Under the pieces are notes generated by a model. It was given only the letters and a program-made list of their open reading frames with translations, searched no databases and was not told the DNA's origin. The translations under genes were made by a program, and so were the position numbers. Positions 3,453 to 46,008 of a stretch of 64,000 nucleotides of DNA are shown in pieces (within the stretch, counting starts at the first letter, position 1; each line of letters starts with the position of its first letter). The stretch comes from an uncultured bacterium (lineage in GTDB: Bacteria > Patescibacteriota > Saccharimonadia > Saccharimonadales > Saccharimonadaceae), in assembly GCA_938030735.1 (NCBI GenBank), contig CALHIM010000011.1, positions 173,480 through 237,479 on the forward strand, written 5' to 3'.

Positions 3453-4442
3453 ATGGCATTAAATTTGAAAAATCGAAATTTTCTAACACTTTTAGATTTT
3501 GCACCAGAAGAAATTCGCTTAATGCTTGATGTTTCGCATGAGTACAAACGTTTAAAACGAGCTGGAATTGCTCACAAAATTCACGAAGGCAAACAAGTTG
3601 CTTTGCTTTTCGAAAAAACTTCAACCCGAACTCGAACCGCTTTCACTGTGGCGGCTCGAGATTTGGGAATTCACCCGGAATTTTTAGGTAAAGATGATAT
3701 TCAAATGGGTAAAAAGGAATCAATTAAAGATACAGCAATTGTGCTTGGTCGCTCATTTGATGGAATTGAATTTCGCGGTTTCGATCATTCAACTGTTGAA
3801 GAACTTGCAAAATATGCTGGTGTGCCTGTTTGGAATGGTTTGACTGATATGTATCACCCAACTCAAATTTTGGCAGACTTTATGACAATTGAAGAACATC
3901 TTGGATACCTAAAAGGTGCTAAATTAGTGTTTGTTGGTGACGGACGCAATAATATGGCGAACAGCTTGATGATTGGCTCAGCTAAAATGGGCGTTGATTT
4001 TCGAATTGCTGCCCCAAATAATCTTCATCCAGACCCTGCTTTGGTTGAAAAATGCCGTGAAATTGCTCGTGAAACTGGTGCAAAAATTACAATTACAGAC
4101 GACCTATATGGTGCCGCTCACGGCGCAGATTTCATCTATACTGATGTCTGGGTATCAATGGGAGAAGAAGATAAATTCGAAGAACGAATCCATCAATTAC
4201 GTGGCTTCCAAGTAAATACGGCACTTCTTCATGCAACTGGAAATCCAAATGTGAAATTTATGCACTGTTTGCCAGCCTTCCATGATTTAAATACAAAAAT
4301 TGGAAAAGAAATTTTCGAAAAATATGGATTGAAAGAAATGGAAGTTACTGATGAAGTCTTTAACTCAAACGCTTCAATTGTATTCGACGAAGCTGAAAAC
4401 CGCATGCACACAATTAAAGCGGTTATCGCTTTAACTTTGTAA
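3453..4442 (+). CDS. arcB: ornithine carbamoyltransferase (catabolic context)
   Basis: ATG 3453 lies 2 nt after the arcA stop. OTCase motifs are present: STRTR ([12 protein letters not shown]), HPTQ and HCLP. Confidence 0.9.
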
Positions 4443-4457
4443 TTTTAGGAGAAGAAA

Positions 4458-6125
4458 ATGGCTATGAAAAAAGATGCAGATAAAACTGCTTCAAAAAAGG
4501 TTAAAAAGGTTTCGAAAAAGCTAAAAGTGTTTAAATCGCCGTCAGCTTTTAGTGTTTTATTCATTATTATTGCAATAATGGCTGGCTTAACTTGGCTCAT
4601 ACCAAGTGGTCGTTATGAACGATTAGAAGACGGAAAAATTAAATCCAACAGTTACTCGCAAACTGAAAAACGCTTGAAAGTTGTTGAAGAAGTTAAAAAT
4701 CCAAAAACCGAAATTTCAATTTCTGACGCAGAAAGCAAAGGCTATAAAAATGCGGCAAGCAATTTTAAAAAAGCTGAAGAAGAGAAAAAAGAATATTACA
4801 TTAATCTAAAGCAAGGATTTTGGGATATTTTCTTGTCTCCAATTTATGGAATGGCTAAGAAACTTGATGTAATCGTATTCATCCTGATCCTTGGTGGGTT
4901 CTTGGGTGTTGTGATGAAAACCGGCGCACTTGATTCTGCAATTGGTGGTTTACTCAAAAAAATGAAAGGCAAAGAGAAGTGGATTATTCCAGTTTTAATG
5001 ACACTTTTTGCGATTGGCGGAACTACTTATGGTATGCAAGAAGAAGCGGTGGCGTTTTATGCATTAATCGTACCAATTATGATTGCTGCTGGTTATAATT
5101 CAATGACTGCCGTAATGGTAATTGTTCTTGGTGCTGGTTCAGGTGTTTTAGCTTCAACAGTAAATCCATTCTCAACTATTATTGCTGCAAACGCTGCTGG
5201 TGCAGAATTATCGAAAATATTATTGCCTCAGTTTATAATTCTAGTTGCATCTTTAGCTGCTTCGATTATCTTTACGATGCGATATGCTGCTAAAGTTAAA
5301 GCTGGTGAATATGCTGAAGACTCTAAAGGAAAACCAGCAGTTAAAGCAATTGATGCTTCAAAAGTTCCAGAATTTACACTTGAGCGAAAATTTGTAATGG
5401 GAATTTTTGGGCTAACTTTCCTTGTGATGATTATGTCACTTGTTCCTTGGGAAGATTTGCATGTAACATTCTTTAAAGACTGGCACGAATGGCTCGCAAC
5501 TTTGCCTATTGTTGGTGGAATCTTCGGATTTGAGCATGCTGTTCCGTTCGGCTCTTGGTATTTTAACGAAATCTCAGCGCTGTTCTTAATCTCAACAATA
5601 ATGATTAAAATTCTTTATCATGAGGAATTTAAAAAAGATGATGTTTCTGTAACAAACACTTTCCTCGCTGGCTCGGCAGATCTATTGAGTGTTGCTTTAA
5701 TTATTGCGGTTGCTGCAGCAATTGGTGTTTTGATGCAAGCTGGCGGAATTCAAGATACGATTGTCTATTGGGGTGAAGAGCTTCTTCGAAAAGTTCCATC
5801 GCAGATATTTGGTGTTTTAGCTTACATTTTCTATATCCCAATGTCATTTATCATTCCATCATCTTCTGGTTTAGCAGAAGCTACAATGCCAATTATTGCT
5901 CCTGTTGCAGATTTAGCTGGCTCAACCAAAGAAATTGCTGTTGTTGCATTTGCAACTGCATCTGGACTTCTTAATATGATTGCCCCTACAATTGCATCAT
6001 TAATGGCTGGTTTAGCGCTTGCAGGCGTGCCTTATAAAAACTGGGTTAAGAGAACTGCTCCATTGATGACTATCTTAACTTTAATTAGTCTTGTTGTAAT
6101 CGTTGTGATGGGATTCTTAAAATAA
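4458..6125 (+). CDS. YfcC/DcuC-type membrane carrier, putative arginine/ornithine antiporter
   Basis: AGGAGA SD upstream. Polytopic protein with a YfcC-like core (LGGFLGVVMKTGALDSAIG...GGTTYGMQEEAVAFY). Its position directly after arcAB suggests the substrate. Confidence 0.65.
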   Translation: MAMKKDADKTASKKVKKVSKKLKVFKSPSAFSVLFIIIAIMAGLTWLIPSGRYERLEDGKIKSNSYSQTEKRLKVVEEVKNPKTEISISDAESKGYKNAASNFKKAEEEKKEYYINLKQGFWDIFLSPIYGMAKKLDVIVFILILGGFLGVVMKTGALDSAIGGLLKKMKGKEKWIIPVLMTLFAIGGTTYGMQEEAVAFYALIVPIMIAAGYNSMTAVMVIVLGAGSGVLASTVNPFSTIIAANAAGAELSKILLPQFIILVASLAASIIFTMRYAAKVKAGEYAEDSKGKPAVKAIDASKVPEFTLERKFVMGIFGLTFLVMIMSLVPWEDLHVTFFKDWHEWLATLPIVGGIFGFEHAVPFGSWYFNEISALFLISTIMIKILYHEEFKKDDVSVTNTFLAGSADLLSVALIIAVAAAIGVLMQAGGIQDTIVYWGEELLRKVPSQIFGVLAYIFYIPMSFIIPSSSGLAEATMPIIAPVADLAGSTKEIAVVAFATASGLLNMIAPTIASLMAGLALAGVPYKNWVKRTAPLMTILTLISLVVIVVMGFLK

Positions 6126-6126
6126 A

Positions 6127-6555
6127 ATGAAACAGATTTCGAAATATCAAAAGGAATCTTTTCATCGAAAATTAACCTCAATTTTGGTGATTGCTGTACT
6201 GGTAGCTGTAGTTTTTGCAGTAGGTTTTGTTGTGAAGCTTCTCGATTTTACACTACCAGTTGCTCACCGAAATATTTCGAATAATAAAAATCAAAATCAG
6301 TCTTCGAAAAATATAACAATTTCAGGAAACGTAGTTTGTCTTTCATTAAAAAAGGGTAAAACTGATAATTCAAATCCAAATAAATGTAAAGTTGGAGTTG
6401 TTGATTCTAAAGGCCAAAAATATGCTGTTTCTGGTGGAAGTAATTTAAATCTTTACGGAGAAGCTAATTCAAACGGAGTTGAGGTTTCTGGTGAGTTTAT
6501 TCCTGCCGGTGAAGATGAAACTTATGATATTGTTGGCACAATCAAGCGTTCGTAG
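6127..6555 (+). CDS. hypothetical membrane-anchored protein
   Basis: 142-aa ORF with one N-terminal TM helix, then an Asn/Gly-rich, probably beta-type domain. Confidence 0.5.
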   Translation: MKQISKYQKESFHRKLTSILVIAVLVAVVFAVGFVVKLLDFTLPVAHRNISNNKNQNQSSKNITISGNVVCLSLKKGKTDNSNPNKCKVGVVDSKGQKYAVSGGSNLNLYGEANSNGVEVSGEFIPAGEDETYDIVGTIKRS

Positions 6556-6567
6556 TATAATTTAACT

Positions 6568-7155
6568 ATGAAGTTATTGAGTGATCAAGTTGATGAACGC
6601 GAGATTAAAGTAATTTTGCGCGAGTTGGAAAAGACTCGCGCATTTTTTGGAGATGTTGTAGAGTTCGGCTGTTATGTTGGTACAACTAGTGTGTTTTTGG
6701 CAAAAACTCTTGAAAAATGGGGAAGTTCTAAAATGCTTTGGCTTTATGATTCGTTTGAAGGCTTACCAGAAAAATCTGTAAAAGATATTAATTCTTTGGG
6801 CGAAGTTTTTAAAAAAGGTGAGTTGTGTGCTAGCAAAAAGCAATTAATTTCAAATTTGCGTAAATCAAATATCAAAAAAATGCCAAAAATTACAAAAGGT
6901 TGGTTTAATGCACTTTCGAAAACACAAATTCCTGAAAAAATTAGCTTTGCTTTCTTGGATGGAGATTATTATGATTCAATTTTAGATCCGCTTAATTTAA
7001 TCTGGAATAATCTTGAAAGTGGTGCAGTCGTTGTTGTAGATGACTATGGAAATCAAGCCTTACCAGGAGCTTCAAAGGCAGTTAACGAATGGTGTAAAAA
7101 ACACAATATTTCAAAAGAAGTTGAAGCAACTTTGGCGATTTTTCGAAAACCATAA
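6568..7155 (+). CDS. TylF/MycF-like class I SAM-dependent methyltransferase
   Basis: VEFGCYVGTTSVFLA, LWLYDSFEGLPE and FAFLDGDYYDSI...VVVDDY resemble macrocin-O-methyltransferase-family proteins. TATAAT at 6556-6561 lies 6 nt before the ATG. Confidence 0.6.
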   Translation: MKLLSDQVDEREIKVILRELEKTRAFFGDVVEFGCYVGTTSVFLAKTLEKWGSSKMLWLYDSFEGLPEKSVKDINSLGEVFKKGELCASKKQLISNLRKSNIKKMPKITKGWFNALSKTQIPEKISFAFLDGDYYDSILDPLNLIWNNLESGAVVVVDDYGNQALPGASKAVNEWCKKHNISKEVEATLAIFRKP

Positions 7156-7372
7156 AAATAATAAAAAGTATTGCGCTTGTGCATAAAATGATGTATTATA
7201 TAAGTATAAGCGCTAAGGTTATTTTTGGGAGGAACCATAAAAATAGCGTGTTTTCTTGACATTTGTTATTTTTTTTGATAGAATAGTTCATAGGCTCGCG
7301 CAAAAGCGTGTAAAATTTATTAAATAAAGAAATCGGTCGAGCGCGTGAGTTGCATGAATAAAAGGAGAACAC

Positions 7373-7465
7373 ATGCCTATCAAAATCAATTTTCCTCCTT
7401 CAAGGAAGAAAATAATTGCGGTGGATGTGGTGCCTGCTGAATGGCAACGCTACATTGAACAATAA
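7373..7465 (+). CDS. candidate 30-codon small ORF (MPIKINFPPSRKKIIAVDVVPAEWQRYIEQ)
   Basis: AAAGGAG (7361-7367) lies 5 nt upstream of the ATG. A TGaTAGAAT promoter-like box sits at 7276-7284 and an 11-bp terminator stem follows the ORF. It falls below the ORF-track size cut-off. Confidence 0.35.
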   Translation: MPIKINFPPSRKKIIAVDVVPAEWQRYIEQ

Positions 7466-7480
7466 AAAGTGACAAAAAGA

Positions 7481-7510
7481 AAATCTCACTCTTTACCGAG
7501 TGAGATTTTA
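7481..7510. terminator. bidirectional intrinsic terminator
   Basis: Perfect 11-bp stem: AAATCTCACTC (7481-7491) pairs with GAGTGAGATTT (7498-7508). It is flanked by an A-run and a T-run. Confidence 0.8.
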
Positions 7511-7518
7511 TTATGGGA

Positions 7519-8250
7519 TTATTTTTGGTTCTTAATTGCTTCGTCTAAGGCTGATTTTAATTTTGCATCATCGCCCCAAATATCAGAAGATAAATCTTTG
7601 CCGTTAAGCTTGAATGAAGGTGTTCCAGTTACTTTCGCTTTCGAACCAACAGCTTGGTCAAATTTAATTTTCGCCTTCACTTTATCACTCTCAATATCTT
7701 TTTTGAATTGGTCGATATTTAGATTTAATTCTTTAGCGTATTCTGTGAAATATTCCATTCGCTCGCTAGCAGTTGAAACCGTCCATTCATCTTGCTTGTC
7801 GTAAAGTAAATCGTGCATTTCCCAATATTTTCCTTGCAAGCCCGCTGCTTCAGCAACGCTTGCTGCAGCAAGTGCATTTGGGTGGATTGTGACTAATGGA
7901 AAGTTTCGAAATATTATATTAACCTTATCTTTATATTCTTCTGCGATTGATTTAACGCGGCTGGCTGCAGTTTTACATCCTGGGCATTGAAAATCACCAT
8001 ATTCAACTAAAGTTATTTTCGAATTATTTTTATGGTAAATATGTTCAGAAATGTTACCTGAATTTTTACTTGAAGAAATCTCTTTCGAAATATCAACATT
8101 ACTCAAATCAATTTTTTGAAGATTCGAGAGCCATATCATTCCACTCAAAAAAAGAACAACCAAAACTGTAAAAATTATTGCAAATTTGTTATCGGCTATA
8201 AAATCTTTTATTTTTTGAAGATTTTTTGCCTTATTTTTATTAGTAGACAT
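7519..8250 (-). CDS. DsbA-family thiol:disulfide oxidoreductase, membrane anchored
   Basis: N-terminal TM helix, thioredoxin-fold CPGC active site (YGDFQCPGCKTAA), and a strong AAGGAGGAAA SD. Confidence 0.8.
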   Translation of the reverse strand: MSTNKNKAKNLQKIKDFIADNKFAIIFTVLVVLFLSGMIWLSNLQKIDLSNVDISKEISSSKNSGNISEHIYHKNNSKITLVEYGDFQCPGCKTAASRVKSIAEEYKDKVNIIFRNFPLVTIHPNALAAASVAEAAGLQGKYWEMHDLLYDKQDEWTVSTASERMEYFTEYAKELNLNIDQFKKDIESDKVKAKIKFDQAVGSKAKVTGTPSFKLNGKDLSSDIWGDDAKLKSALDEAIKNQK

Positions 8251-39072: not shown

Positions 39073-41436
39073 ATGAATAGTGGGCAAAATCTTGAAAATA
39101 TTAAAAAGTTTATTCGTGCGGCGAATTATTTAACGGTTTCGCAAATTTTTTTGCAAGATAATTTTTTGTTAAATCGTTCTCTGGAATTTAATGATATCAA
39201 ACCCCGACTTCTTGGGCATTGGGGGAGTTGCCCGGGTGTAAATCATGTTTATGCACATCTTTTAAATATTCAAAAACAGCTAGAATTTGCAAAAAGTGGG
39301 CTCAAAGCTGCTTTTATGCTTGGCCCTGGACATGCTTTTCCAGCGCTTCAAGCGAATCTTTTTCTTGAAGAAACTCTTTCAAAGATCGATAAAAATGCAG
39401 TTCGAAGTTCGCAAGGTATTGCTTATATTTCGAAAAACTTTTCTTGGCCGGGCGGTTTTCCGTCGCACGCAAGCCCTTTCACCCCAGGCGTAATTCTTGA
39501 AGGCGGTGAGCTTGGTTATTCGCTCTCGACTGCTTTTGGGGCAGTTTTAGACAATCCAAATCTTGTAATGACTACTTTAATTGGTGATGGCGAGGCTGAG
39601 ACTGGCCCAATTGCTGCAGCTTGGCATTTAAATAAATTAATAAATCCAGTTGAAAATGGAGTAGTTTTGCCTATTTTGCATTTGAATGGTTATAAAATTT
39701 CTGGTCCGACAATTTTTGGATCGATGAGTGATTTTGAGTTGATTCAATTTTTTCATGGAGCGGGCTGGGAGCCAAGAATTGTTGATGAATATTCTGCTGA
39801 AGATTTCGATTTCGAACTTTCAAAAGTTTTTTCGAACGCTTTTCGAGATATTTCACGAATAAAATTTGGTCGGAATAACGGTTTTGTTCGGCTACCGATG
39901 ATTATTATGCGAAGTAAAAAGGGAAGCTCTGGTGTTGTTGAAAATAATGGTGAAAAAATTGAAGGAAATTCGCTCGCTCATCAAGTTCCGCTTTTAAATG
40001 CCAAGAGCGATGAAAAAGAGCTCAAAAAACTTAAAGATTGGTTAGAATCTTATAAATTTGAAGAGCTTTTTGATTTTGAAAAAGGTGAATTTAAACCTTG
40101 GCTTGATGATTTTTTACCAGAAAAATCAAGTAGGATTGGGCGGAATCGTTTTGTGGACGCGAATTTGAATTTTACAGAATTGAAATTGCCAGAAATTCAT
40201 GAAAGAGTGGGTGAAAAATCACTCGCAATGAATGCAATTGGTGATTTTTTGAAAGAAATTTTCGAAAAAAATCCAGAGAACTTCCGCTTTTTTAGCCCTG
40301 ATGAAACTTATTCAAATAAATTAGATGCTATTTTTAAGGCAACTTCACGTTCTTGGCAGCGAGAAATTAAACCGTGGGAAAAAAAAGATTTATCGAAAAA
40401 TGGCCGCGTGACGGAAATCTTGAGTGAGCATTCTTTACAGGGGCTTTTGCAGGGCTATATTTTAACGGGGCGACATGGAGTTTTAACTTCTTATGAAGCC
40501 TTTGCACCGATTATTTCTTCGATGATGGATCAATATGCAAAATTTCTAGCGCAATCACAAGAAGTGGAGTGGCGAGGTGATCTAGCAAGTTTAAACTATA
40601 TTTTAACTTCAACTGGTTGGCGGCAAGACCACAATGGATTTTCGCACCAAAATCCGAGTTTTATTGATGAAGTTTTACGCCGCGAAAACGGAATTGGGCA
40701 GATTTTTTTGCCAGCAGATGATAATTCGGCAGTTGTGGCGATTTCGAAAATGCTAAAATACCGAAACAATATTAACGTTTTGGTTGCGGGAAAAACGCCT
40801 GAACCAAGATATTTTTCTCTTGAAATTGCACAAAAACAGCTTGAAAATGGCGGAATATTTGTTTTTGATTCTTGGAAAAATCAAGAAATTGCAGATTGGA
40901 ATTTAATCCCAGAAGATGATGAGCCAGATTTAATTTTGGCGGCAAGTGGTGATTATGTTTTTAAAGAAACGGTTGCGGCGCTTCGAGTTTTGCTTCATGA
41001 TGTACCGCAAGTTAAAATTCGCTTGGTTTATGCTCAAGCACTTTGCGGAAAGGGAATTGGAACTTTTGAAAATACACTTTCGAAAAGCAATTTCGTGAAG
41101 ATTTTTACCAAAGATAAGCCAGTTGTATTTGCTTTTCATGGATACGCTAAAACTCTGAAATCAATTTTATTTGATTATGAAAATCCGTCGAGAATTAAAA
41201 TTAACGGATATGAAGAAAAAGGTTCAACAACTACGCCCTTTGATATGTTGGCGAGAAATCGAGTTTCGCGATATGATATTGCAATGAGGGCCCTAAATTC
41301 GGTTGATAAAGGTGACGAAGATTTTGAAAAACTTGCAAGAGAATATCAAAAACGCCAAGATGATGCTTTGCGTTTTGCACTAGAAAACTCAGTGGATGCG
41401 CCAGAGATTGAGAATTGGGTATATTTGAAGTTTTAA
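39073..41436 (+). CDS. xfp: xylulose-5-phosphate/fructose-6-phosphate phosphoketolase
   Basis: 787 aa. LLGHWGSCPG and the ThDP motif IGDGEAETGP are present, with an end-to-end phosphoketolase layout. Confidence 0.9.
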   Translation: MNSGQNLENIKKFIRAANYLTVSQIFLQDNFLLNRSLEFNDIKPRLLGHWGSCPGVNHVYAHLLNIQKQLEFAKSGLKAAFMLGPGHAFPALQANLFLEETLSKIDKNAVRSSQGIAYISKNFSWPGGFPSHASPFTPGVILEGGELGYSLSTAFGAVLDNPNLVMTTLIGDGEAETGPIAAAWHLNKLINPVENGVVLPILHLNGYKISGPTIFGSMSDFELIQFFHGAGWEPRIVDEYSAEDFDFELSKVFSNAFRDISRIKFGRNNGFVRLPMIIMRSKKGSSGVVENNGEKIEGNSLAHQVPLLNAKSDEKELKKLKDWLESYKFEELFDFEKGEFKPWLDDFLPEKSSRIGRNRFVDANLNFTELKLPEIHERVGEKSLAMNAIGDFLKEIFEKNPENFRFFSPDETYSNKLDAIFKATSRSWQREIKPWEKKDLSKNGRVTEILSEHSLQGLLQGYILTGRHGVLTSYEAFAPIISSMMDQYAKFLAQSQEVEWRGDLASLNYILTSTGWRQDHNGFSHQNPSFIDEVLRRENGIGQIFLPADDNSAVVAISKMLKYRNNINVLVAGKTPEPRYFSLEIAQKQLENGGIFVFDSWKNQEIADWNLIPEDDEPDLILAASGDYVFKETVAALRVLLHDVPQVKIRLVYAQALCGKGIGTFENTLSKSNFVKIFTKDKPVVFAFHGYAKTLKSILFDYENPSRIKINGYEEKGSTTTPFDMLARNRVSRYDIAMRALNSVDKGDEDFEKLAREYQKRQDDALRFALENSVDAPEIENWVYLKF

Positions 41437-41443
41437 TTAAAGT

Positions 41444-41477
41444 AAAAAAATCACACCTCTAATTGGTGTGATTTTTA
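41444..41477. terminator. bidirectional intrinsic terminator
   Basis: Stem AATCACACC (41449-41457) pairs with GGTGTGATT (41465-41473), flanked by an A-run and a T-run. It lies between convergent xfp and the 211-aa gene. Confidence 0.8.
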
Positions 41478-42094
41478 TTGTACATTATTTCTGTCCAGAT
41501 AAAATCTTGACCTAGCAAATTTACATTTTTATCAACAAAAACTCCATCTTCATTAACTAAATTCCCTATAAAATTTGAAGCATCATTTACTAATTTGTAT
41601 TTTTTGCCCTTATTTTTTGGGAATTCAATTAAACATATTTTTGAAATTTCTTTAGCAATTTCCTCTCTGTAAAGAGAGAAATTCTTGCAGTCAAAAGCTG
41701 TTAGTATATAGCCAAGAGTTGAGGGCGCGAATTTTTTACTAGAAAGAAAATTTGTGCTTATATCAACACCCTCAATTGTTTTAACTATTGTTTCTGGGTT
41801 TGAATTTTTTATATCTCTAAAAATTTGATAAAAATTTTTATGCTTTGAAAGTCCTTGCAGATCATCCATATCAATCCAATGCGAAAAATTGTTGAGGTTT
41901 TTCGAAAGAAGTTTAGCTATTTTTTCAGAATTTTCGCTACATATTTCTATTTTCGAAAGTTCACTGTTTAATTTTGGCAAAATTTCCCATTTATAATCTT
42001 CGTCGTATTTTTTTATATCTCCAGAATTTCTACGAGAATAATAATCTTCTTTATTTTGTTCGAAAAATTTTTTCAATGCAACTTTATTTATCAT
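41459..42094 (-). CDS. hypothetical 211-aa protein, operon partner of the DUF262/DUF1524 gene
   Basis: The ATG lies 9 nt after the upstream stop, with GAGGA in the gap. AT-rich. I recognise no catalytic motif. Confidence 0.55.
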   Translation of the reverse strand: MINKVALKKFFEQNKEDYYSRRNSGDIKKYDEDYKWEILPKLNSELSKIEICSENSEKIAKLLSKNLNNFSHWIDMDDLQGLSKHKNFYQIFRDIKNSNPETIVKTIEGVDISTNFLSSKKFAPSTLGYILTAFDCKNFSLYREEIAKEISKICLIEFPKNKGKKYKLVNDASNFIGNLVNEDGVFVDKNVNLLGQDFIWTEIMYNKNHTN

Positions 42095-42103
42095 ATAGTC
42101 CTC

Positions 42104-43840
42104 TTATTTTAACAGATTCTCACTTTTAAGTTTTGCAATAAAATTATCAATAATCCGTGATTTTCTTTCAATAATTTCATTTTCATCAAATTTGTCAAGA
42201 TTTGTAAGCTCAATAATTTCTGTAATTTTACTTGGTTCTTTTGAGCTTCCTCGCCGTTTTTTACCGAGGTAAAAGTCTTTTTTGACATCAAATTCAAAAT
42301 CTGAAGCTTTAATATTTATTGAGCTTTCCAGAATAATCTTATTTCCAATAGATTCGATTAGATTTTTGTCGGAAATTCCGTTAATTTCGGCACGTTTTTT
42401 CGCAAAAATATGTTCGATTTGAAGTGGTTCTTTCAGGCTCAAGAGTTGCTGATTTTCATTCGAAAAAGCAAACCAAACGAGAAATGATTTTGTAATTCCT
42501 TTCATGTTACTAAATTCGAAGTTATCGAAAGCCGTGCGGAGAGAACTTTCATCAAAAAGATGATTCTCGAAAGATGGAACGAGGCTATTGCGGTTAACTA
42601 TTTCGCTCATTTCTTTAAAGATTGGAGTTCGGAGTTGGTTTACGCCAGGATTTATTAAGCTATAGCCTAAAATAAAGTTTGTTATTTTTGAAAGAAAATG
42701 ACTGAACGCATCTAAATCGATCTCATCGTCTGAATCTCGATTCTGTAAAAACCAAACCGACACAATATTTTCCCACATTGTATTTGGGGAATAGCGCAAA
42801 ACAAAAAGTTTTCGAATCACTTCATTGCTAAAAGATTCATCTTGAGAATAAACTTTTTGCCAGAAAATTGCCAAGTCACTTAAATCATCAAGAGCTGATT
42901 CATCTTTAAAATAAGGAAAATCTTGATTCTCGCCACGGAAGAAACTGCGTAGAGACTCGGTTGTGCTTCTAGTTATGCCATTTTTTGCCCGTAAGAAATA
43001 CATATATTTTGTGAAAAGTTCATCCATTGGCGTGCCTTGTTGTGGCTTGAAAATTTCTTCGGTAATTTCTTCAAGCTTCTTCCATTCTTTAATAAAATCA
43101 TTCTTTTGATTTTTGTCAAAATAAAGTTTGTAGAATTTCGATTTAAAGATATCTGCATCAGCCAAGGGTAGTCCGCGGTCGTTTAGCGTGGAGAAGATTT
43201 GTAAGGCATTATCTTGGTTGACAGCTTCAATAGATAATATCATGCAATATTCTAAAATTCGTGCCGGAACGTAAAATATTGAAGAAAAATACTTTTCGCT
43301 AGCATCTTTAATTTTTTCAAGAAAGAAACGGAAATTTTGTGCGTATTGGCTGCGAAATTCTTTTGGAACTTTACCGGATTTTAATATTTCCAAAAATTCT
43401 TCTTTATCGTTATCTGTTGCAACTTCAGAAATTAATTTAAGATTGTTTTTATCTACACGTCCAAATTCATCTGTTTTCCACAAACATGATTCTATCTTTT
43501 TTCTAATTAATTGAGACTCATCATCTTTTAAAAATTCGAATCTATCATAAAACGCTCGAAGTAAAAGCATTAAGGTTGTTAGGCGCTGCTGGCCATCAAT
43601 AATCTCGAACTTGCCATTCTCTGGGAAATAAACTATCGATCCAAGAAAATATTCGTCATTTTCATCAAAAGCTGTGTAGTTTTCATTTGGAATTGTAAAA
43701 GAGAAAAGATCGTCCCATAAAGTTTGACATTGATCTTCAGTCCAAGCGTAAGGACGCTGGTATTCTGGTATTAAGAAATCGTGTTTTCTATTAGACAAGA
43801 GCTGATGAATATTTTGTTGAGTCATTTTTGGCTGAGCCAT
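42104..43840 (-). CDS. GmrSD-type DUF262/DUF1524 nuclease (type IV restriction-like)
   Basis: ORF 42104..43924 trimmed to ATG 43840 (MAQPKM) after AAGGA. DUF262 motifs FLIPEYQRPYAW and IIDGQQRLTT. C-terminal His-Me/HNH-like IEHIFAKK...IGNKIILESSIN. Confidence 0.75.
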   Translation of the reverse strand: MAQPKMTQQNIHQLLSNRKHDFLIPEYQRPYAWTEDQCQTLWDDLFSFTIPNENYTAFDENDEYFLGSIVYFPENGKFEIIDGQQRLTTLMLLLRAFYDRFEFLKDDESQLIRKKIESCLWKTDEFGRVDKNNLKLISEVATDNDKEEFLEILKSGKVPKEFRSQYAQNFRFFLEKIKDASEKYFSSIFYVPARILEYCMILSIEAVNQDNALQIFSTLNDRGLPLADADIFKSKFYKLYFDKNQKNDFIKEWKKLEEITEEIFKPQQGTPMDELFTKYMYFLRAKNGITRSTTESLRSFFRGENQDFPYFKDESALDDLSDLAIFWQKVYSQDESFSNEVIRKLFVLRYSPNTMWENIVSVWFLQNRDSDDEIDLDAFSHFLSKITNFILGYSLINPGVNQLRTPIFKEMSEIVNRNSLVPSFENHLFDESSLRTAFDNFEFSNMKGITKSFLVWFAFSNENQQLLSLKEPLQIEHIFAKKRAEINGISDKNLIESIGNKIILESSINIKASDFEFDVKKDFYLGKKRRGSSKEPSKITEIIELTNLDKFDENEIIERKSRIIDNFIAKLKSENLLK

Positions 43841-43917
43841 AATATCCTTTCGGTTATGTTTATATTTTAATTTTATCACGACAGAGCAAAAAAACAATAG
43901 TTGTAAATAATACATCA

Positions 43918-43955
43918 TTAGCACTCTTGACTTGTGAGTGCTAAAAGCGTATAAT
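43918..43955 (+). promoter_or_regulatory. perfect CIRCE operator fused to the dnaK promoter
   Basis: TTAGCACTC-TTGACTTGT-GAGTGCTAA (43918-43944). The -35 TTGACT (43927-43932) lies in the CIRCE spacer, then a 17-nt spacer, then TATAAT (43950-43955). Confidence 0.9.
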
Positions 43956-44109: not shown

Positions 44110-46008
44110 ATGGGAAAAATTATTGGAATTGACCTTGGTACAACTAACAGTGCTTTTGCGTATATGGTTGCAGGAAAACCTGAGGTTATCACAAATGCAG
44201 AAGGAAATCGAACTACTCCATCAGTTGTAGCAATCAATAAAAAAGGTGATCGCTTGGTTGGGCAGGTAGCGCAACGTCAACGCGTAACAAATCCAAAAAA
44301 TACAATTTACGGAGTAAAGCGTTTGATTGGCCGAAAATATTCTGATGATGAGATTCAAAAAGATCTTGGAATCATGCCTTACGAGATTGTGAAAAAGGGT
44401 AGCGGTGTTGCTGTAAAAATGGGTGACAAAGAATATACACCAGAAGAAGTTTCAGCGATGATTCTTTCGAAAATTAAAGTTGATGCTGAGGCTTTCTTGG
44501 GCGAAAAAGTTACCGAAGCTGTGATTACAGTTCCAGCTTACTTTGATGATAGCCAGCGCCAAGCAACTAAAGATGCTGGTAAAATTGCTGGTCTTGAAGT
44601 AAAACGAATTATTAACGAGCCAACTGCAGCCGCACTTGCTTATGGCTTGGATGGTAAAAAAGATGAAAAAATTGCTGTTTTCGACCTTGGTGGTGGAACA
44701 TTCGACGTTTCGATTCTTGATATTGCGGACGGCGTTTTCGAAGTTCTTTCAACAAACGGTGATACACACCTTGGTGGTGAAGACTTCGATAACCGAATTG
44801 TGAACCATTTCTTGGATGAATTTAAGAAAGAAGAGGGAATTGATCTTAAAAATGACTCTGCTGCAATGCAACGCTTGAAGGATGAAGCTGAAAAAGCCAA
44901 AAAAGAGCTTTCTTCAACAACATCTTACGAAGTAAACTTACCGTTCTTAACAGCTGATGAAGATGGTCCAAAACACTTTGAATACACTCTAACTCGAGCA
45001 AAACTTGAAGAATTAGTTGCTGATTTGATTGATCGACTAGCCGACCCTGTTGAAAAAGCTCTAAAAGATGCAGATCTAAAAGCTAGCGATATCTCTGAAG
45101 TTGTGATGGTTGGTGGTATGACCCGAATGCCAGCTGTGGTTGAAAAAGTTGAAAAAATCTTTAGCAAAAAACCAACTCAAGGTGTTAACCCAGATGAAGT
45201 TGTGGCCGTTGGTGCTGCAATTCAGGGTGGCGTTTTGGCCGGAGATGTTAAAGATGTGCTACTTCTTGATGTTACACCTTTGACACTTGGAATTGAAACT
45301 GCTGGTGGCGTTCGAACTCCGATGATTGATCGAAACACAACTGTACCAACTTCGAAATCACAAGTTTTCTCAACTTATGCTGATAATCAGCCGCAAGTAG
45401 AAATCCACGTGCTTCAAGGTGAGCGCGAAATGGCTGCCGACAATAAATCTCTTGGAATGTTTGTACTTTCAGGAATTGCACCAGCGCCACGAGGAGTTCC
45501 ACAAATTGAAGTTACTTTCAATATTGATGCGAACGGAATTTTGACAGTTACTGCTAAAGATAAGGGAACTGGTAAAGAGAATAATATCACAATTCAAAAC
45601 TCAGGAAATATGAGTAAAGAAGATATTGAAAAAGCTCAAAAGGAAGCTGAACTTCACGCTGATGAAGATAAAAAGAAGCGCGAATTAATCGATGCTAAAA
45701 ATCAGCTAGAGAATGCTATTTATCAAGCAGAAAAAATGCCAAGCGAATTCAAAGATAAGATTTCGAAAGAAGATGAAGAAGCAATTTCGAAAGCTGTTGA
45801 AGAGGCTAAAAAACATCAAAATGCCGATAGTAAAGATGAGCTTGAGAAAGCTGCTAAAGATCTTCAAGATGCAATTATGCCAATTGGCGCAAAATTGTAT
45901 CAAGCTCAAAGCGCAGATAATGCGGGTGAAGCTGGTGAAAAAGCTAAAACTTCTCACAAAAAAGATAATGACGAGCCGGTTGAAGGCGAAGTTATTGACA
46001 AGAAATAA
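44110..46008 (+). CDS. dnaK: molecular chaperone DnaK
   Basis: [18 protein letters not shown] and [14 protein letters not shown] are present. GAAGGAGA SD. Confidence 0.97.

Follow-up and report, generated by a model that had tools for sequence, protein, structure and literature searches.

A stretch of 64,000 nucleotides (nt) of contig CALHIM010000011.1 (NCBI GenBank assembly GCA_938030735.1, positions 173,480 to 237,479 of the forward strand) from an uncultured member of the Saccharimonadaceae was analysed and is referred to here as the window. Between xfp and dnaK the window encodes two adjacent minus-strand genes, the first for a putative restriction nuclease of 578 amino acids (aa) of the GmrSD family and the second for a 211-aa protein (Table 1). 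The 9-nt gap between them was read directly, and it holds the GAGGA that an initial annotation of this DNA, made from the letters alone, had placed there. The 211-aa protein, referred to below as the module where its family is meant, and its relation to the nuclease are the main subject of this analysis.

Table 1. Features of the gene pair and its flanks, in positions of the window
Feature	Position	Strand	Basis or remark
GmrSD-family (HEC-06/Orf5-like) Type IV restriction nuclease gene, 578 aa	42104..43840	-	Pfam, PADLOC, ratio of nonsynonymous to synonymous substitution rates (dN/dS); start ATG at 43840 with AAAGGA just before it, stop TAA 42104-42106
DUF262/GmrS ParB-like NTPase domain, residues 11-236	43133..43810	-	Pfam envelope; includes DGQQR at 43583-43597
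DUF1524/GmrD His-Me finger nuclease domain, residues 432-564	42149..42547	-	Pfam envelope
His-Me core E476-H477...N500...N509	42314-42415	-	inside the DUF1524/GmrD domain
Intergenic spacer 'gaggactat', 9 nt, with ribosome-binding site (GAGGA) of the 211-aa gene	42095..42103	-	read directly
211-aa free-standing 'McrB-N-type' all-alpha module, candidate sensor/specificity subunit	41459..42094	-	homology, AlphaFold2 (AF2); start ATG at 42094, stop TAG at 41459-41461
Shared hairpin terminator of the convergent xfp and 211-aa genes	41446..41476	.	12-bp stem, 7-nt loop
Upstream region of the GmrSD gene, Shine-Dalgarno AAAGGA	43841..43918	-	abuts the divergent CIRCE/dnaK promoter 43919-43955
xfp	39073-41436	+	one flank of the gene pair
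dnaK	44110-46008	+	other flank of the gene pair

The larger product had been described from its motifs as a GmrSD-type DUF262/DUF1524 nuclease, and profile searches agree with this description. Both Pfam domains score above threshold, with GmrSD_N matched over profile positions 1-198 of 199 (E 2.5e-39, 135.9 bits against a cut-off of 33.2) and GmrSD_C at E 8.5e-9 (35.9 bits against a cut-off of 23), and the PADLOC GmrSD-like models Orf5 (2e-40) and HEC-06 (2.8e-37) cover the full length of the protein. All motifs quoted earlier are present, namely FLIPEYQRPYAW at residues 22-33, DGQQRLTT at 82-89 (within it IIDGQQR, 80-86), IEHIFAKK at 475-482 (EHIFA, 476-480) and GNKIILESSIN at 499-509, which supplies GN(500)K and SIN(509). 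In GmrSD-type enzymes DGQQR has been defined as the NTP hydrolysis motif and DHIYP as the HNH nuclease motif (PMC8565348), and HEC-06, a validated single-gene defence, combines DGQQR with EHICP, in which E471 and H472 are essential (10.1101/2024.01.29.577857). EHIFA occupies the position of EHICP in HEC-06 and of DHIYP in BrxU, motifs whose acidic residue and histidine are essential (10.1101/2024.01.29.577857; PMC8565348). The catalytic residues (E476/H477, N500 and N509), whose loss would have spoken against an active nuclease, are thus in place, and D82-G83-Q84-Q85-R86, H477, N500 and N509 show no variation among seven partner nucleases, comprising the window protein and six DUF262 proteins that adjoin the module elsewhere. 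The RLFDS motif was not found in the 578-aa protein, which carries QIFST at the equivalent place; this motif is also absent from HEC-06, EcoCTGmrSD and SspE (Payne et al.; 10.1101/2024.01.29.577857) and therefore marks the BrxU subtype and not the GmrSD family. Since the protein shares its motif configuration with HEC-06, and its two-domain architecture, length and, nearly, the position of its E/D-H motif with HEC-06, GmrSD and BrxU, it is by sequence an intact, full-length member of the GmrSD family, most like HEC-06. Described members of this group are encoded as single genes, together with SspABCD in the case of SspE, or embedded in bacteriophage exclusion (BREX), Hma or Type I restriction-modification loci, which sets them apart from the pair described here.

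The initial annotation had quoted KKFFEQNKEDYY, DEDYKWEILPKL and FAPSTLGYILTAF from the 211-aa protein, all of which are present, and had assigned no motif to it. In keeping with this, no match was obtained in Pfam, PADLOC or NCBIfam, and among 46 members of its family no Pfam family was matched consistently and no hydrolase or glycosylase family was matched at all. A word-indexed homology search returned only relatives with at least 78% identity and the same synteny, and an exhaustive HMMER search over 1.84 billion cluster representatives returned 69 relatives. The free-standing relatives are 209-230 aa long and share 31-57% identity with the window protein. Many others are long proteins in which the module is N-terminal or forms the second domain from near residue 216, the fusion partners being McrB-type AAA_5 GTPases, EVE plus AAA_5, MrcB_N plus HNH, or SRA domains. 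The fused GTPases match the region of the NCBIfam McrB model PRK11331 with E-values down to 2.6e-46. With phmmer, the 211-aa protein alone matches fused McrB-type proteins at E 1e-8 to 1e-17, and a profile of its close relatives matches the fusions at E 1e-25 to 1e-73 over profile positions ~10-214, essentially the whole domain.

Several of the fusions are found in operons with McrC. One locus encodes, in order, an Mrr_N protein, a module-McrB fusion and McrC (L057; PF10117, E 1e-91), and another encodes a 586-aa protein (P0164) that consists only of the module (residues 9-242), the GTPase and McrB_lid, with McrC as the next gene and an adjoining CRISPR (clustered regularly interspaced short palindromic repeats)-Cas locus (L063). 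In a metagenome sample, scanned with a tighter alignment than the 46-sequence family alignment, the module is fused to an McrB GTPase in 36 of 49 loci, with McrC downstream in at least 18. These loci include minimal module-McrB proteins of 573-590 aa, and in the minimal forms P0164/L063, L089 and L091 the module directly abuts the GTPase. Judged by these profile matches, homology links the 211-aa protein to the domain found at the N-terminus of McrB GTPases that are encoded with McrC, and the likeness to an McrB/COG1401 N-terminal module suggested in the initial annotation is borne out.

Precomputed annotation from a newer Pfam release places the labels PF28529 and PF28530 (DUF8426) on some of the fusions. 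As the locus tables show, PF28529 is McrB_lid and does not describe the module. PF28530 maps to a separate segment of ~115 aa downstream of the module and is found on three fusions only, and modules 47-50% identical to theirs lack the label; a segment of this size, apparently DUF8426, lies between module and GTPase in P0156 (449-555), P0159 (269-380) and P0162 (447-559). In the libraries examined, the module is thus without a curated family. Its interpretation as a detached piece of GmrSD was rejected (hhalign probability 0.6%), and the nuclease is itself full length. P0091, a candidate distant free-standing copy beside a PLD-SNF2 helicase, was dismissed, since it is a fused McrB gene with a frameshift in a T5/T6 homopolymer. 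One gene appears as a module-McrB fusion of more than 940 aa in L067 (~5159) and as a 'stand-alone' open reading frame (ORF) of 249 aa in L068 (~4103), the difference being a T6 versus a T5 run, which reflects either a frameshift allele or a sequencing artefact. Relatives of the module were found neither in IMG/VR viral contigs (pattern scan) nor among INPHARED phages or PLSDB plasmids, which led us to reject phages or plasmids as its source and anti-defence as its role.

The structure prediction and fold search proposed earlier for the 211-aa protein were carried out. A single-sequence AF2 model reached a predicted local distance difference test score (pLDDT) of 40, and a model based on the 46-sequence alignment a pLDDT of 95.0 and a predicted template modelling score of 0.90, with ten helices and no strands. 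Foldseek returned nothing significant from the PDB (best E 1.3, template modelling (TM) score at most 0.34, probability at most 0.2) or from the viral predicted structures of BFVD. A weak theme among the Foldseek matches consists of all-alpha enzymes of the base-excision type, including Ogg (3fhg, TM 0.34) and AlkA (2jhn, TM 0.25), and several entries of Qng1/DUF2419 (TM ~0.3). A profile search of PDB sequences gave a sub-threshold match to the double helix-hairpin-helix, (HhH)2, region of FANCM (E 0.06), which sets the conserved 'LGTPLFGYLLAA' segment of the module against the HhH hairpin and is treated here as a lead only. The 46-sequence profile was also compared by hhalign with a single Escherichia coli EndoIII sequence (validated against 2ABK), a comparison of limited sensitivity that gave a probability of 0.4%. 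Membership of the module in the EndoIII/HhH-GPD family was rejected on the basis of the non-significant Foldseek and hhalign results. Near-invariant residues in the family are, in the numbering of the window protein, Y18, E32, Y34, K35, W73, I107, Y129, Y166, Q196, D197 and F198.

The genomic context of the module was examined in one genome per species, giving 49 loci, 47 of them with free-standing copies; neighbouring genes were clustered and annotated with Pfam, PADLOC and a DUF262 hidden Markov model, and gene junctions were read directly. The 47 free-standing loci are almost all from Saccharibacteria, including cultured Nanosynbacter strains, and one (L010) is 100% identical to the window over the 211-aa gene; the window itself belongs to a Candidatus Saccharimonas (Saccharibacteria/TM7) genome. 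A DUF262 gene lies within 3 kb of the module in 21 of the 47, involving two GmrSD subtypes and five arrangements. In the clade of the window, GmrSD is followed by the module between dnaK and xfp, with the 9-nt spacing kept in L001-L004 and L010-L015. At the same site, the two genes overlap by TAATG in L005, whose module shares 57% identity with that of the window, and in L017 and L018 the order is reversed, with the module preceding GmrSD. Module and then GmrSD are also found in L039 and L048. In L006 and L047 the module stands between a PLD-SNF2 helicase (PADLOC PLD_Helicase, 6e-193) and GmrSD, and in L047 it starts 8-9 nt past the helicase gene. A HEC-05-type DUF262 protein precedes the module by 6 nt in L049 (Microsaccharimonas), and in nine loci GmrSD is convergent to the module at a distance of 0.3-2.7 kb.

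Partners of other types were identified as well. In ~10 loci a 370-aa PDC-S11-like protein (PADLOC 8.8e-23) precedes the module with an overlap of 14 nt (junction in L033), and its 'DALGFD...VIETK' segment aligns with the PD-(D/E)xK core of NucS at E 0.086. In L050 (6808-8675) a 364-aa reverse transcriptase (PADLOC RT, 5e-16) is encoded 87 nt upstream of the module on the same strand and is possibly a fifth type of partner. Coupling is tight with four partner types, namely GmrSD (9 nt), the HEC-05-type DUF262 protein (6 nt), PDC-S11 (14-nt overlap) and PLD-SNF2 (8-9 nt). Furthermore, PDC-S11-like and PLD-SNF2 genes recur beside module-McrB fusions in unrelated metagenomes. Linkage of the small protein to DUF262 genes, a point for checking in the initial annotation, is thus recurrent; the module is nevertheless no GmrSD-specific partner, as it also couples to PDC-S11, PLD-SNF2 or reverse transcriptase genes or stands alone. 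Within the window itself no homologue of McrB GTPase, McrC, PDC-S11, PLD-SNF2, EVE or SRA and no second module or second DUF262 gene was found in any frame, so that GmrSD is the only candidate partner there.

In L007, L029 and L052 the pair of PDC-S11-like protein and module is immediately followed by a convergent large serine recombinase, with a GIY-YIG-like gene in L007 and L052, which suggests from gene content that this pair is carried on a small integrative element in Patescibacteria. Relatives whose modules are 84-87% identical differ in what the dnaK-xfp islet contains (L016:8001-9675, L017:3385-7027, L018:3214-4938). The islet of L016 holds the module without GmrSD together with a 172-aa gene of unknown function (C48), and the GmrSD of L017 is N-terminally truncated to 491 aa, without DGQQR. 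Beside module copies without a nuclease neighbour, L020-L022 (~4100-7712, minus strand), from three Saccharibacteria genomes, encode in divergent orientation a protein of 1,204 aa with no Pfam or PADLOC match, which is also found in L041.

Both genes of the pair are under purifying selection, with dN/dS against close relatives of 0.04-0.18 for the 211-aa gene and 0.06-0.22 for GmrSD (xfp, 0.08-0.10). In the clade of the window (L001, L002, L011-L015), GmrSD occurs in two allele classes of 578 and 579 aa. They diverge almost only in residues 1-200 (43240-43840), the DUF262 domain, where identity is 42-70% per 50-aa bin, and are 84-100% identical over residues 200-578. Between the classes, dS is 0.64-0.98 as compared with 0.25-0.40 for flanking genes. 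This pattern implies an intragenic recombination breakpoint, with exchange of the sensor/NTPase domain. Because the divergence is almost confined to residues 1-200 and identical module alleles (L001 and L002) accompany different classes, the N-terminal domain of GmrSD is the part under exchange, as expected of an arms-race target, while the module is constant.

Considering these features together, we propose, with a probability of roughly 0.55, that the two genes form a modification-dependent (Type IV) restriction cassette in which the 211-aa module serves GmrSD in trans as a sensor or specificity subunit. The ParB-like DUF262 NTPase of GmrSD (DGQQR) would drive or gate the DUF1524 His-Me finger nuclease, which would cut foreign, probably hypermodified, DNA. 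The 211-aa gene would be translated from the GmrSD message, 9 nt downstream, and its product would bind a trigger, which might be a modified base, a DNA feature or possibly a phage factor, and associate with the nuclease, setting or widening what the latter attacks. In Saccharibacteria, a sensor freed from McrB would have been re-used with two GmrSD subtypes, a NucS-like PD-(D/E)xK protein and a PLD-SNF2 helicase. The physical association of the two proteins, the thing sensed and the effect on nuclease specificity are what we infer in this scheme. Characterised McrB proteins carry a reader of DNA modification at the N-terminus, and Type IV enzymes in general combine a specificity domain with a nuclease (PMC11090510). 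In the minimal McrB fusions the module is the sole domain at the N-terminal position and is therefore the only candidate there for the DNA-reading role. This position in McrB, together with the tight coupling of the free form to four unrelated effector families, makes a sensor the most economical reading. A wider form of the proposal, which we put forward tentatively and hold to be less probable, is that the module represents a plug-in trigger or sensor of an undescribed fold family that arms at least four effectors in cis or in trans (the McrBC motor-nuclease, the GmrSD His-Me nuclease, the NucS-like PD-(D/E)xK protein and the PLD-SNF2 helicase-nuclease), with Saccharibacteria keeping the sensor and swapping the nucleases.

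Comparison with known systems places this arrangement between several of them. As in McrBC, the domain in question occupies the N-terminal specificity position of many McrB GTPases encoded with McrC, but in the window it is a separate protein without an McrB GTPase or McrC, it is all-alpha, unlike the known McrB readers (ADAM/DUF3578, YTH-like, EVE), and it has no Pfam family. END nucleases consist of an inactivated EndoIII/Ogg sensor (iEndoIII) fused to PLD, NucS-like PD-DExK or McrB effectors (PMC12191111). They resemble the present family in having an all-alpha module of ~200 aa and nearly the same effectors (PLD-containing, NucS-like and McrB); however, no homology to them is detectable (TM at most 0.34 to Ogg/AlkA, hhalign 0.4% to EndoIII), and the putative sensor of the window is encoded by a gene of its own, with GmrSD added to the list of partners. 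By this analogy, the module behaves like the iEndoIII sensor although it is not a detectable member of that superfamily, and the shared repertoire of partners supports a role as a modular modification sensor. The Brig3-BapA operon likewise encodes a defence enzyme that acts on modified DNA and a small accessory protein that extends its range (PMC13160076), but neither BapA, a glucosyl hydrolase with an ASCH beta-barrel, nor the glycosylase Brig3 is related to the proteins described here. In the literature searched on GmrSD-like enzymes, none has a translationally coupled helical partner of the McrB-N type. A GmrSD enzyme with such a partner is thus a new configuration of known Type IV restriction, GmrSD and McrBC themselves being known.

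Several observations weigh against the proposed sensor role. The module family is acidic, with a median isoelectric point of 5.35 and a net charge of -6, an uncommon property in proteins that bind DNA. HEC-06 and BrxU each function without a second gene (10.1101/2024.01.29.577857; PMC8565348), so that a nuclease of this kind need not have a helper, and several fusions hold the module together with the established readers EVE, SRA and MrcB_N, so that it may do something other than read bases. At ~15 loci the module has no nuclease gene beside it and is flanked by genes for a pilin-like protein and a P-type ATPase, with dN/dS values mostly of 0.1-0.3, and it can therefore work by itself or with a distant partner. 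L001 and L002 carry identical module alleles beside GmrSD proteins of different classes that are ~80% identical, and the alleles accordingly show no sign of allele-specific co-evolution between module and GmrSD. Transcript data on a joint message of the pair consist only of contigs of a relative with ~93% identity, in runs whose RNA status is guessed.

The main rival reading, which we consider unlikely yet the strongest of the competing ones, holds that the 211-aa protein is an autonomous single-gene defence or DNA-surveillance factor that lies beside nucleases through the clustering of defence genes in a variable islet, the two genes being independent. The purifying selection on solo copies in ~15 species, the varied partner types and the shifting content of the dnaK-xfp islet among close relatives (L016-L018) would all fit such independence, as would the shuffling of module and nuclease alleles and the sufficiency of HEC-06-type GmrSD on its own (10.1101/2024.01.29.577857). 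Co-location in an island would not by itself account for junctions that overlap or measure less than 10 nt with four unrelated partner families, nor for a 9-nt spacing kept throughout the clade; moreover, no catalytic fold is recognised in the module, and most family members carry the domain within the effector polypeptide itself, which argues that it needs an effector.

Two further readings retain a partnership with the nuclease and give the module another task in it. The protein might be an accessory enzyme that strips or excises a hypermodification and so creates or exposes the nuclease substrate, as BapA does for Brig3, a defence enzyme that owes part of its range to an accessory gene (PMC13160076). 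The nearly invariant polar and aromatic side chains would be in keeping with a pocket that accommodates a base or sugar and contains an acid catalyst, the weak fold matches are to the base-excision-type proteins Qng1/DUF2419, SsOgg and AlkA (TM 0.25-0.34), and the module keeps its function when alone. We nevertheless regard an enzyme of this type as improbable, given that no fold match reaches significance (best E 1.3, probability at most 0.2), that hhalign against E. coli EndoIII yields 0.4% and that no hydrolase or glycosylase family is matched in any of the 46 members; BapA, as an ASCH beta-barrel, was rejected as a relative of the module. Slightly less probable still is an immunity or antitoxin-like regulator that keeps a potentially self-toxic nuclease in check before infection, perhaps by covering the cleft with which it binds DNA. 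A small, translationally coupled gene downstream of a nuclease would be a plausible place for it, and DNA-mimic inhibitors are acidic like this family. Fusion in cis to McrB motor N-termini, HNH and SRA is, however, not where antitoxins sit, the module persists without an adjacent nuclease, and E. coli tolerates related GmrSD enzymes present on their own (10.1101/2024.01.29.577857; PMC8565348).

Type IV restriction is understood as the combination of a sensor with a nuclease, and new kinds of sensor continue to join those already described (PUA-like domains, winged helices and iEndoIII). To these the present family adds a confidently predicted all-alpha domain, with no solved relative or curated family, that heads a sizeable subfamily of McrB proteins. 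Saccharibacteria provide it as a separate protein that can be tested alone and mixed with defined nucleases, and the recurrent pairings suggest a free-standing target-sensing part that can be shared among different nucleases. What the domain recognises, and whether a sensor acts in trans on GmrSD, thereby become testable, as does the question of how ultra-small episymbiotic bacteria, mostly without CRISPR, economise on phage defence. The initial annotation had considered the retention of such a system in a very reduced genome notable; the nuclease is indeed intact by sequence, and the module is widespread in Saccharibacteria and thus no oddity of this genome.

The pair had also been described as AT-rich and as an insertion that interrupts a heat-shock gene neighbourhood. 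With a G+C content of 0.270, the 211-aa gene ranks second lowest of 59 genes (mean 0.345, standard deviation 0.038), but its G+C content at third codon positions (GC3) of 0.212 is within ~1 standard deviation of the mean (0.253, standard deviation 0.040). The GmrSD gene, at 0.327 (rank 18 of 59) and a GC3 of 0.285, above the mean, is ordinary for the genome, and the first description thus holds in part. The pair does lie between xfp and dnaK; however, composition gives no support to recent horizontal transfer, and the presence of the pair at the same site in relatives, with the small protein down to 57% identity, indicates that it is a long-standing resident.

The hairpin shared with xfp starts 10 nt past the xfp stop codon, covers the stop codon of the 211-aa ORF and has an A-run and a T-run on its two sides; a terminator scan flagged it on the minus strand only. 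On the other flank, a CIRCE element (controlling inverted repeat of chaperone expression; TTAGCACTC-N9-GAGTGCTAA, 43919-43945) is embedded in the dnaK promoter (TTGACT-17-TATAAT, 11/12 matches). A promoter scan upstream of the GmrSD gene called only this plus-strand promoter and no consensus promoter on the minus strand. An upstream GTG (43924) as the GmrSD start, which would give 606 aa, was rejected as it falls inside the dnaK CIRCE/promoter and homologues measure 578-579 aa. Two promoter-like sites (TTGACA-16-AATTAT with TG, and TTGAAA-17-GATAAT; 10/12 each) lie on the minus strand inside the GmrSD 3' end (42143-42198), at a distance of 40-100 nt ahead of the start codon of the 211-aa gene, which might be transcribed separately from them; the total of such sites in the region is not above that of shuffled sequence. 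Nearly all genes of at least 100 aa in the window are on the plus strand, with positive GC skew throughout, and the defence pair is one of its few minus-strand units.

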